Positions 38,401 to 41,907 of a stretch of DNA of 43,448 nucleotides are shown here, piece after piece; the first letter of the stretch is position 1, and every line of letters begins with the position of its first letter. The stretch lies in IMG/VR virus record IMGVR_UViG_2861058914_000003. The stretch is one strand, 5' to 3'. Source of the DNA: a virus (Duplodnaviria > Heunggongvirae > Uroviricota > Caudoviricetes). Position numbers: made by a program.

Positions 38401-41400
38401 GATTATTATTTTTACATTCGCAGTGTGAACACCGTTGGCAAATCGGCATTTGTGGAGGCTGTTGGCCAGCCGAGTGATGATGCATCCGGCTATCTGGATT
38501 TTTTCAAAGGAGAGATAGGGAAAACCCATCTGGCTCAGGAGTTGTGGACGCAGATTGATAACGGTCAGCTTGCGCCTGACCTGGCTGAAATCAGGACGTC
38601 CATTACGGATGTCAGCAATGAAATCACGCAGACCGTCAATAAGAAACTGGAAGACCAGAGTGCAGCGATCCAGCAGATACAGAAGGTTCAGGTTGATACA
38701 AATAATAACCTGAACAGCATGTGGGCTGTGAAGCTGCAGCAGATGCAGGACGGACGCCTTTATATCGCGGGTATTGGTGCCGGTATTGAGAATACCCCTG
38801 ACGGTATGCAGAGTCAGGTGCTGCTGGCGGCGGACAGGATTGCGATGATTAATCCTGCGAATGGCAATACAAAGCCGATGTTTGTTGGGCAGGGCGATCA
38901 GATATTCATGAACGAAGTGTTCCTGAAATATCTGACGGCTCCCACCATTACCAGCGGTGGCAATCCCCCAACGTTTTCACTGACACCTGATGGTCGACTT
39001 TCTGCGAGAAATGCGGATATCAGCGGTAACGTGAATGCGAACTCCGGGACGCTCAATAATGTCACGATTAACCAGAACTGTCGGATTCTGGGAAAACTGT
39101 CAGCTAACCAGATTGAAGGTGATATTGTCAAAACGGTGGGAAAAGCCTTTCCGAGAAATGGCAGTTATGCCAGCGGTACAATAACGGTCACTGTGTACGA
39201 TGACCAGGCTTTTGACCGTCAGATAGTCGTCCCCCCCGTTCTGTTTCGCGGTGGTAAGCATGAAAACTTCAACAGCAACAACCAACAGTCATACTGGTAT
39301 TCAACCTGTAAGCTGCAGGTGCTGAAGAACGGACAGGAAATCTTTCAGCAACCCGCGACGGATGTCAGCAGGGTATTTTCATCAGTCATTGATATGCCTG
39401 CCGGACACGGCCATGTCACCCTGACTTTCAATGTTTCTTCATATGGTGCAAATAACTGGACGCCAACGACCAGTATCAGCGACCTTCTTGTTGTCGTGAT
39501 GAAGAAATCAACAGCCGGCATCAGTATCAGTTGAATTTTAAAACCCAAATTCGGGCACCAGAAATGGTGCCTTTTTTATTTGTGGAGTGAATATGGCAGT
39601 ACAGATTTCAGGTGTGCTGAAAGACGGTGCAGGAAAACCGATACAGAACTGCACCATTCAGCTCAAAGCAAAACGTAACAGCACCACAGTTGTGGTGAAC
39701 ACGGTGGCCTCAGAAAATCCGGATGAAGCCGGACGTTACAGCATGGATGTTGAGTATGGCCAGTACAGCGTCGCCCTGCTGGTTGAAGGTTTTCCGCCTT
39801 CACATGCCGGGACCATCACCGTGTATGAGGATTCTAAGCCGGGGACATTGAATGATTTTCTGGGCGCTGCAACAGAAGATGATGTTTGTCCGGAGGCACT
39901 GTATCGTTTTGAAAAGATGGTGGAAGAGGCGGCACGCAACGCTGAAGCCGCCTCTCAGAGCGCAGCGGCAGCAAAGAAATCAGAAACAGCAGCGGCATCG
40001 TCCAGGAACGCGGCGAAAACATCAGAGACGAATGCAGGTAACAGCGCGAAAGCGGCAGCTTCTTCAAAAACAGCCGCACAAAACGCAGCAACAGCGGCAG
40101 AACGTTCAGAGACAAATGCCCGTGCGTCAGAAGAAGCCTCCGCAGACAGTGAAGAGGCTTCCCGCCGTAATGCAGAGTCAGCCGCTGAAAATGCCGGAGT
40201 CGCCACCACAAAAGCGCGGGAGGCCGCAGCAGACGCAACAAAGGCCGGGCAGAAAAAGGATGAGGCTCTGTCGGCAGCGACACGAGCTGAAAAGGCGGCA
40301 GACCGCGCAGAAGCCGCAGCGGAAGTGACTGCAGAGCCCTGTGCGAATATAGTGCCGCCGCTGCCTGATGTGTGGATACCGTTTAACGATTCACTGGATA
40401 TGATTACGGGTTTTTCGCCATCTTATAAAAAGATAGTTATTGGTGACGATGAAATAACAATGCCAGGCGACAAGATTGTTAAGTTTAAACGTGCTTCAAC
40501 AGCAACGTATATTAATAAGTCCGGCCAACTCAAGCTTGCTGAAGTTGACGAACCGCGATTTGAGCGCGATGGCTTATTGATTGAAGGACAGAGGACAAAT
40601 TATCTGAGGAACTCAAATAAACCAGACTCATGGACTGTTCATTCCGCACTGAATAAAACATTTGGCACTGATAAACAGGGGTTCAATTATGCCACGGTGA
40701 CACCCACGGAAAGTATAGTGGGAACAACAGGTGGCTATACTGTGCATGGTGTGGTTGCAGCAGACAGATTCCCGCTGGCAAGTGGTGAATGTTTCACTTT
40801 TTCGTGCCGGGTTAAAGGCGCTAAAGCACGATGCAGGTTAAGAGTTTCAGTTATTATTGGTGGAACAGATACCTTCTCTGCTGACTCTTATCTTGATCTG
40901 GATACCCGGATCGCAACAGTAAGCGGTAATACATCCCTTATAACAGCCAAAGCTGAACAACAGGGCGAGTGGACCTACTATGAGGCCACTTATACAGCTA
41001 ATACGGACATTGATACCGTTAACTGTGCTTTTTATATGACAAATAAAATAAGTAATGAGACATTCTATGATGACTCAACATTAACCATGACGACGCCGCA
41101 AATTGAACTGGGCAATACGGCATCGTCATTTATTGTAACTACAATGCCAACAACACGCGCAAGTGATGTAGTTACTATCCCATCGCAGAATAACCTGTCA
41201 ACACGGCCTTTTACGGTATTGTGCGAAGTAAGCAGGAACTGGAGTACACCGCCCAATGTTGCGCCAAGGATATTTGATGTTGGAGGGCACAGTATTGATG
41301 ATAATTATTTATCGCTGGGGTTTGTTGCAACAGGAAAGATAAGCGCCAACGTAGGAATGGTTCAGCCACAAATTGCCTCAGATGGAGAAAGGTTCATTGT

Positions 41401-41907
41401 GGGTGTGAGAGCTAAATCTGATTTATCAGTAAATGCAATATGCAATGGTAATTATACAACAAACCTTAATGGTAAAATATTTGGAGTTACAGCAACATCG
41501 TACCGGTTTGGTGGGCAGACCGCAGCAGGAACGCGTCATTTGTTTGGACACATCAGAAATTTCAGAGTCTGGTTTAAAGAATTAAATGACAGGCAAATCA
41601 AGGAGGCAGTATGAAAGATTTAACTTTGAAATTTCCTGGTAACAGAGAGTTTAAATCCTTCCTGTCATCTCTTGACTGGGAGGAGGATGAAGACCTCCAG
41701 AATAAACTGTTAGTCGATGAAATTGGTTTCACCTACACAGAAACAGGGGTAACAGAAGAGGGAGAACCTGTCTGTGTCCGGAATGACGGTTATTTTGTCA
41801 ACATTCGCATTCTTGATGACTTGTTTGATGTTTCTGTATTCTCTGATTATGTCGTGGAGCTGGAAACACCGCTTTGAAGTGGTCAACAAAAACTGGCCAC
41901 CGAGTTA

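Follow-up and report, generated by a model that had tools for sequence, protein, structure and literature searches.

We analysed the side tail fibre gene stf in a stretch of 43,448 nucleotides (nt; the window) from a tailed virus of the Caudoviricetes (IMG/VR record IMGVR_UViG_2861058914_000003). The gene belongs to a cassette of a phage-21-like (Jouyvirus) prophage at icd, and its product joins a lambda-type N-terminal collar to a tip predicted to be a lectin-type adhesin, unlike the gp37-like needle of lambda Stf. Directly downstream lies the gene for a small acidic partner protein, which has been truncated by an insertion sequence (IS). We propose, with a probability of about 0.6, that the tip serves contact with a surface glycan and that the partner is an analogue of the lambda fibre assembly protein Tfa. 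The collar would anchor fibre trimers around the tail and a coiled-coil shaft would follow; lectin-like β-sandwiches would replace the gp37-like, Tfa-dependent tip of lambda and mediate a reversible first contact with O-antigen, lipopolysaccharide (LPS) or capsule. The translationally coupled partner, 92 amino acids (aa) when intact, would be obligate for this tip type and would most probably act as an accessory factor in tip assembly or stabilisation, its contacts probably lying in those parts of the tip that do not vary. Two known families are combined in this mosaic fibre, which is common in databases and functionally uncharacterised; we found neither the phage 21 Stf nor the small partner described in any paper. 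Coordinates of all features are collected in Table 1.

Architecture of the fibre and exchange of its tip

The stf open reading frame (ORF) is uninterrupted from either candidate start, GTG at 39587 or ATG at 39593, the latter being the start annotated in phage 21. The Prokaryotic Genome Annotation Pipeline (PGAP)/RefSeq annotation splits it into a pseudogene and a 404-aa 'phage head spike fiber domain-containing protein' (L005 7594-7957 and 8401-9615, equivalent to 39593-39956 and 40400-41614 of the window). Because the ORF is continuous and the genome annotated by PGAP is 100% identical to this part of the window, we regard this split as an annotation artefact.

Judged by sequence comparison, the N-terminus of Stf is of the lambda type. 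The Pfam family PF08400 covers the collar domain, and residues 1-158 are 73% identical to lambda orf-401 (BLASTP, E 2e-73), which is the N-terminal half of Stf in the frameshifted lambda reference genome, orf-314 being the C-terminal half. Residues 1-94 match the collar structure of Ur-lambda Stf (9E7M/9MGH, E 1.5e-49), in which four Stf trimers form a dodecameric collar (PMC12617516). The ~120 residues that follow align loosely by BLASTP with the shaft repeats of lambda and presumably form a trimeric coiled coil. The tip, in contrast, has no homology to lambda orf-314 (best BLASTP E 0.23), and a tblastn search of the window with the orf-314 tip returned nothing.

We identified 1385 relatives of the tip among 1.84 billion representative proteins searched, and an alignment of 64 of these served as input for an AlphaFold2 (AF2) model of Stf aa 250-673. 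The model is confident (predicted local distance difference test, pLDDT, 93; predicted template modelling score, pTM, 0.88) and nearly all β, and Foldseek agreed with its reading as lectin-like β-sandwiches. The first sandwich belongs to the head-spike-fibre type of gene transfer agents (GTAs): aa 329-523 align with positions 1-181 of the 182-position model NCBIfam NF048003 ('GTA_spike_fiber') and score 65.7 bits, where the cut-off is 36, and the tip-family profile matches Rcc01080 (6TB9), the head-spike fibre of the GTA RcGTA, with E 7.5e-40. The motif 'PQ.E....SS.IPT....TRA.D' is common to the first sandwich and Rcc01080. The terminal domain is modelled as a β-sandwich jelly roll that can be superposed on known concanavalin A-like lectin, LamG, pentraxin and CBM40 members, and at the sequence-profile level the last ~150 aa gave weak matches to pentraxin, CBM40 and botulinum neurotoxin (BoNT). 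Within this sandwich (profile positions 447-602) lies a conserved C-terminal segment, 'GHIRNFRVW..L.D.Q', which may correspond to the final strand of a LamG-type domain.

With a fold of this kind, O-antigen, LPS or capsule is a more likely target of the tip than OmpC, into which the gp37-like needle of lambda inserts (PMC12617516). A receptor specificity other than that of lambda Stf, which the earlier note on this DNA had predicted, is plausible on the lectin-like model. Rcc01080 (GhsB), with which Stf shares a homologous β-sandwich domain, is a polysaccharide-binding adhesin: RcGTA adheres to the Rhodobacter capsule through this one flexible subunit (PMC7296036), and the fluorescently labelled protein binds capsulated cells only (PMC10218006). 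Rcc01080 differs from Stf in sitting on the capsid penton through an N-terminal Leu-Gly repeat, and in lacking the collar, the shaft and the terminal pentraxin-like domain. Glycan binding would agree with the role of lateral fibres in related siphoviruses, which are generally assigned to O-antigen recognition (PMC8594841).

Stf of the window and Stf of phage 21 are 64% identical as proteins overall, and the difference is concentrated in the tip. When stf and the small ORF were scanned against phage 21 in successive 90-column blocks, DNA identity was 97-100% from aa 1 to ~270, fell to 66-73% over aa ~270-330 and to 29-54% over aa ~330-640, and rose again to 72% in the last ~30 codons of stf and to 88-100% in the small ORF. 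This mosaic profile points to an exchangeable specificity cassette at aa ~270-645 with conserved flanks. Phage 21 (OL657228; CPT_21_22, CPT_21_23 and CPT_21_24) thus resembles the window up to aa ~270 and again over the stf end and the small ORF, but carries another specificity allele in the centre; of the two, the window alone has an IS in the small gene.

An older exchange is recorded further downstream. The window from 39000 to 43448 is 100% identical, in one piece, to the E. coli chromosome NZ_CP135458, where 58 nt of non-coding sequence, 93% identical to nt 465-522 of lambda tfa, form a relic 19-76 nt past the window end. The relic has the membrane-protein gene on one side and sitD on the other, and would encode 'ATEEETPLLEARKKYRVLL'. 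A Tfa gene was sought in the window and the following 7 kb, and this relic was all that was found. The left junction at tfa nt 465 is common to 24/24 related loci with a detected relic, some of which keep tfa through its stop codon and some of which carry a second copy ~1 kb further on. By its sequence, the relic is a direct scar of an older replacement of lambda-type genes.

Relative to (Ur-)lambda, then, the window retains the N-terminal collar, an Ala-rich shaft, the position of stf downstream of J and an accessory gene directly downstream of stf. It differs in the tip, which in lambda is gp37-like, binds OmpC and needs Tfa, and in the partner, an unrelated protein; lom is missing and tfa survives only as the relic. 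The earlier note had described a lambda-like N-terminus, an Ala/Ser/Glu-rich linker and a C-terminal region of ~420 aa unlike lambda Stf, and had concluded that the receptor-binding module, and possibly its chaperone, had been exchanged. Each of these points is borne out here, the last by a tip of another family, a partner that is not Tfa and the tfa relic. The note had named a Tfa homologue just outside the window as evidence that would count against its reading; the Tfa-related sequence at that place, being a non-coding relic, instead confirms the exchange.

The small partner gene, its truncation and its linkage to the tip

The 88-aa partner encoded in the window has an isoelectric point (pI) of 4.05, with 21 acidic and 7 basic residues, and matches the phrog_1361 profile ('unknown function', E 1.5e-36) over residues 1-88 of 92 profile positions; the intact protein has a mass of 10.7 kDa. 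It did not align with lambda Tfa and had no match in Pfam or NCBIfam, and none of the 88 clusters recovered in a profile search bears a functional name ('hypothetical', 'uncharacterized', 'putative prophage' or unnamed). Its AF2 model (pLDDT 89) is a β-α-α-β-β unit for which no informative structural neighbour was found. Among 18 diverse phrog_1361 members, R89 and W91 of a C-terminal R-x-W-(A/S) motif are nearly invariant, and a ratio of non-synonymous to synonymous substitution rates (dN/dS) of ~0.3 among alleles of lineages without a second fibre indicates purifying selection.

The R-x-W-(A/S) motif is missing from the window copy. The gene is interrupted by ISEc52, which has HTH_Tnp_1 (orfA) and rve (orfB) domains, imperfect terminal inverted repeats of 27 nt (41875-41901 and 43098-43124) and a target duplication of CTT (41872-41874 and 43125-43127). 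The stop codon at 41875-41877 is not native, its TGA being the first three bases of the IS; the protein ends at L88, and the four final codons (R-E-W-S) now lie beyond the IS, at 43128-43139. Because R89 and W91 are nearly invariant, the truncation probably matters, and the fibre system of this strain may be impaired. The earlier note had correctly described the downstream product as small, acidic and not Tfa-like, but took its end to be native. It also missed the IS truncation, the tfa relic and the fact that the cassette is standard in phage 21 and many sequenced phages, being 100% identical in about a dozen.

ISEc52 is not the only element found here. E. coli genomes H30-H34 carry ISEc23 (IS66-like) or ISEc62 (IS21-like) in the same 4.4-kb stf/small-gene stretch, and in phage 3W an IS66 element separates stf, which matches tip aa 2-370 only, from the small gene (L086 5930-8346). 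These insertions suggest that a dispensable fibre system is repeatedly eroded in lysogens, as it was in lambda PaPa. A stronger version holds that the system of the window is decaying and non-functional, as lambda PaPa lost Stf, and that the gene pair is a relic. Removal of the conserved R-x-W end by the IS, the insertions in other strains and in phage 3W, and the dispensability of side fibres for plaque formation in lambda and T5 all fit such decay. We nevertheless consider it doubtful, given that stf is intact and identical to the stf of sequenced, propagated phages and that only four residues of the partner are lost.

The gene for the partner is closely linked to the tip. In a set of 83 loci containing the small ORF (three phage records, the matching E. 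coli chromosome and 79 IMG/VR contigs), a tip-bearing ORF lies directly upstream in all 83; 51 of the pairs share 4 nt and 31 share 1 nt, and the one remaining locus has a computed gap of 32 nt. Over every locus examined (>90) the partner directly follows this tip type, in lambdoid, T1-like, T5-like, Dhillonvirus, Seuratvirus and rV5-like phages; rV5 itself has another fibre allele and no small ORF. By tblastn the partner was found in 144 phage records and the tip module in 218. Four phages sampled from the shortfall (KarlJaspers, PhiR55_1, Lindwurm and APCEc03) all have a homologous ORF directly after the fibre gene, so that the difference between 144 and 218 is at least partly due to divergence rather than absence. 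Divergent homologues that had escaped tblastn were also recognised at the corresponding place in AKFV33 (hhalign E 3e-13) and in the rV5-like CarlMeissner (E 1e-14). Three distant tip homologues (30-37% identity), two of which lie beside an SU10-type adaptor gene, each have a small ORF downstream, and two of these three ORFs are significant partner homologues ending in '..KWA' and '..VWA'.

The lateral fibres of the T1-like, T5-like, Dhillonvirus, Seuratvirus and rV5-like phages thus share the tip module (33-67% identity) and the partner family with the window; examples are AKFV33 ORF137/136/135, IrisVonRoten bas32_0022-0024 and PeterMerian bas05_0031-0029. They differ in having N-terminal attachment domains of T5 or rV5 type. 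In the small siphoviruses and the T5-like phages, moreover, the partner is followed by the gene for a second fibre, which carries an S74 chaperone; the lambdoid version encodes a membrane protein there instead. The partner does not co-vary with the tip, being ~93% identical between phages whose tips are ~44% identical. If it touches the fibre, the contact would therefore be with the neck (aa 256-336) or the C-terminal strand, both of which are conserved.

Alternative roles for the partner

The position directly 3′ of the fibre gene is that of tfa, gp38 and other fibre chaperone genes. The partner resembles Tfa-type chaperones (lambda Tfa, T4 gp38, Mu U, P2 G; Pfam Caudo_TAP) in this position and because such genes are often translationally coupled and inherited together with the tip. 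It differs from them in having no similarity of sequence or fold, in being about half the size of Tfa and in not varying with the tip allele. Tentatively, at odds a little short of even, phrog_1361 represents an unrecognised class of fibre accessory (chaperone, tip cap or branch adaptor) that is required with this lectin tip and uses R-x-W as its contact; the class would be unrelated to Tfa, gp38, gp57A and S74, and would extend over siphoviruses, rV5-like myoviruses and prophages with SU10-type adaptors.

Several points weigh against a glycan-binding tip with a Tfa-analogous partner. Concanavalin A-like folds can bind proteins too, and β-sandwich lectin domains often fold unaided. Glycan specificity is argued from fold and homology, and the tie between partner and fibre, which the earlier note had suggested as a possibility, consists of gene linkage. 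The head fibre of RcGTA is a single flexible subunit (PMC7296036); together with unaided folding, this means that a chaperone may be unnecessary. Finally, most of the virulent phages have a second fibre gene with a conserved N-terminus after the partner, which an adaptor role fits equally well.

Such an adaptor would join a second fibre to the one with the lectin tip, in the way that LtfB is attached to LtfA in DT57C, and in the phage 21 lineage, where the second fibre is lost, the partner would be a leftover or would serve fibre stability only. Another fibre gene begins ~10 nt behind the partner in the virulent siphoviruses that we examined (T1-like, T5-like, Dhillonvirus and Seuratvirus) and in the lambdoid PhiR55_1, where a short second fibre is followed by the 97-aa membrane protein; in KarlJaspers it overlaps the partner end. 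The second-fibre proteins have unrelated bodies and a common N-terminus, MxTxTxIPxDITxLK, found in the T1-like, T5-like, Dhillonvirus and Seuratvirus phages and in one lambdoid phage, which is likely to be a docking peptide for branched fibres; all four second fibres checked against Pfam end in a Peptidase_S74 chaperone domain. Branched lateral tail fibres are documented in T5-like phages (PMC4728585, PMC10713586). Contact of the peptide MVTKTVIPGDITTLKG with the partner would speak for the adaptor role.

Against this, the membrane-protein gene directly follows the partner in 80/80 lambdoid prophage-type loci, the window included, and none has a second fibre, yet the partner keeps its R-x-W end and the low dN/dS given above. 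The IPxDITxLK motif is absent from all six frames of the window, which speaks against a second fibre there, and the 196-aa protein that follows the partner in the rV5-like CarlMeissner also lacks it. Selection on the partner gene where no second fibre exists is our reason for favouring a Tfa-analogous role over a branch adaptor, which we consider unlikely. Two candidate precedents were set aside: the DT57C LtfA/LtfB papers do not account for this tip, since those fibres are of the S74 type, and GSP004 ORF208 is an irrelevant Kuttervirus tailspike.

It is more improbable still that the tip folds and works alone and that the partner masks the sugar site in the producing cell, controls expression or is a passenger. 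The usual autonomy of lectin-like β-sandwiches, the monomeric RcGTA head fibre and the lack of co-variation between partner and tip would suit this, and one may speculate that the invariant penultimate Trp plugs a carbohydrate site. Strict adjacency and translational coupling in at least six phage lineages and in distant prophages argue against a passenger gene.

Far less probable than any of these is maturation of Stf through a cleaved C-terminal intramolecular chaperone, as in T5 pb1 or K1F endosialidase, an option raised in the earlier note: the absence of Tfa and the use of S74 by neighbouring second fibres elsewhere are all that favour it, whereas no Peptidase_S74 match was found in Stf at E <= 0.1 by a search that does find S74 in the second fibres of other phages, the AF2 model ends in a β-sandwich and a short helix with the conserved C-terminal segment inside the sandwich, and the homologous fibre ORF137 of AKFV33 is present in virions as a 95.8-kDa band with 57% peptide coverage (four gel bands analysed; PMC3326045), with no sign of C-terminal cleavage.

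Gene neighbourhood and significance

Beyond the window, the prophage of NZ_CP135458 continues past the IS and the 97-aa membrane protein with sitDCBA and a truncated icd, the remnant of the phage 21 attachment site. In classical phage 21 the genes follow one another in this order too (J, stf, 92-aa ORF, 97-aa membrane protein and sitDCBA), ending like 1H12 in icd′, and the order J-stf is common to phage 21, 1H12 and PhiR47_2; no lom lies between the two genes. Because phage 21 is arranged in the same way, the gene order is standard for phage-21-like (Jouyvirus) phages and no peculiarity of the window. The DNA of stf and the small ORF is 100% identical to that of the temperate coliphage 1H12 and ten other phage records, the stf of PhiR47_2 is 99.7% identical, and the 673-aa Stf occurs on >1000 contigs, O25b:H4-ST131 genomes among them. 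The cassette of the window is therefore a common prophage allele, and the biology here is ordinary.

The gene for the membrane protein starts 10-13 nt after the small ORF in the 80 lambdoid loci and is the constant third gene of the lambdoid cassette. Its position beside receptor-binding genes would suit a function in superinfection exclusion or conversion. Elsewhere in the window, between the replication genes (O, P) and the late region, the prophage carries two cargo genes, for a 1421-aa inverse autotransporter adhesin of the intimin/invasin family with IAT_beta and Big_1/Invasin_D3 repeats and for a 347-aa BD-FAE/α/β-hydrolase esterase. An ORF with a YdaT_toxin domain lies between the gene for a CI-like repressor and replication gene O.

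Table 1. Coordinates of the fibre cassette and other features (positions in the window unless a locus is named)
Feature	Position	Strand	Basis
stf, side tail fibre, 673 aa, intact	39593..41614	+	ORF list; phrog_1419 'tail protein' E 2e-294
Collar / tail-attachment domain, lambda Stf type, aa 1-131	39593..39985	+	PF08400 'prophage tail fibre N-terminal', E 2.8e-67
Ala/Ser/Glu/Thr-rich shaft, aa ~132-255	39986..40357	+	Composition; loose repeat similarity to lambda shaft
Conserved neck and first lectin-like β-sandwich, GTA head-spike-fibre type, aa ~256-523	40358..41161	+	NF048003, profile match, AF2 model
Terminal β-sandwich, pentraxin / LamG / CBM40-like, aa ~524-673	41162..41611	+	
Exchanged cassette relative to phage 21, approx. 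aa 270-645	40400..41520	+	DNA identity 29-73%, against 97-100% upstream and 72-100% downstream
Small acidic partner gene (phrog_1361), 88 aa here, 92 aa intact	41611..41877	+	Start overlaps stf stop (ATGA); stop from IS end
ISEc52 (IS3 family), 1250 bp	41875..43124	-	Inverted repeats, junction alignment with intact 1H12, PGAP name
Displaced 3′ end of partner gene	43125..43142	+	CTT duplicate + CGG GAA TGG AGC TGA = R-E-W-S-stop
97-aa membrane protein (phrog_1443, function unknown)	43155..43448	+	phrog_1443 E 2.4e-58; two transmembrane domains annotated in phage 21
gpJ, central tail fibre / tip attachment protein, directly upstream of stf	36052..39534	+	Six Pfam gpJ domain families match, including C-terminal receptor-binding domain; annotated J in related phages
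CI-like repressor	5655-6410	-	
YdaT_toxin-domain ORF	6749-7288		
Inverse autotransporter adhesin	9252-13517	+	
BD-FAE/α/β-hydrolase esterase	13554-14597	-	
tfa relic	L005 11468-11525; L001 8628-8685; L002 8667-8724		
Second-fibre gene starts in other phages	L089 4789-, L087 4586-, L090 4292-, L092 3789-, L091 3770-, L094 4102-, L095 4111-, L096 4083-		

Host recognition begins with a step, often specific for a glycan, that is determined by the side and lateral fibres, and it is these fibres that are swapped in engineered lambda-based delivery particles. The exchangeable specificity cassette at ~aa 270-645, with its conserved flanks, is a practical lead for such work, and chimeras with lectin tips of this kind may need the partner gene too. 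The one new lead is the partner family itself, a defined and testable candidate for a new fibre accessory.

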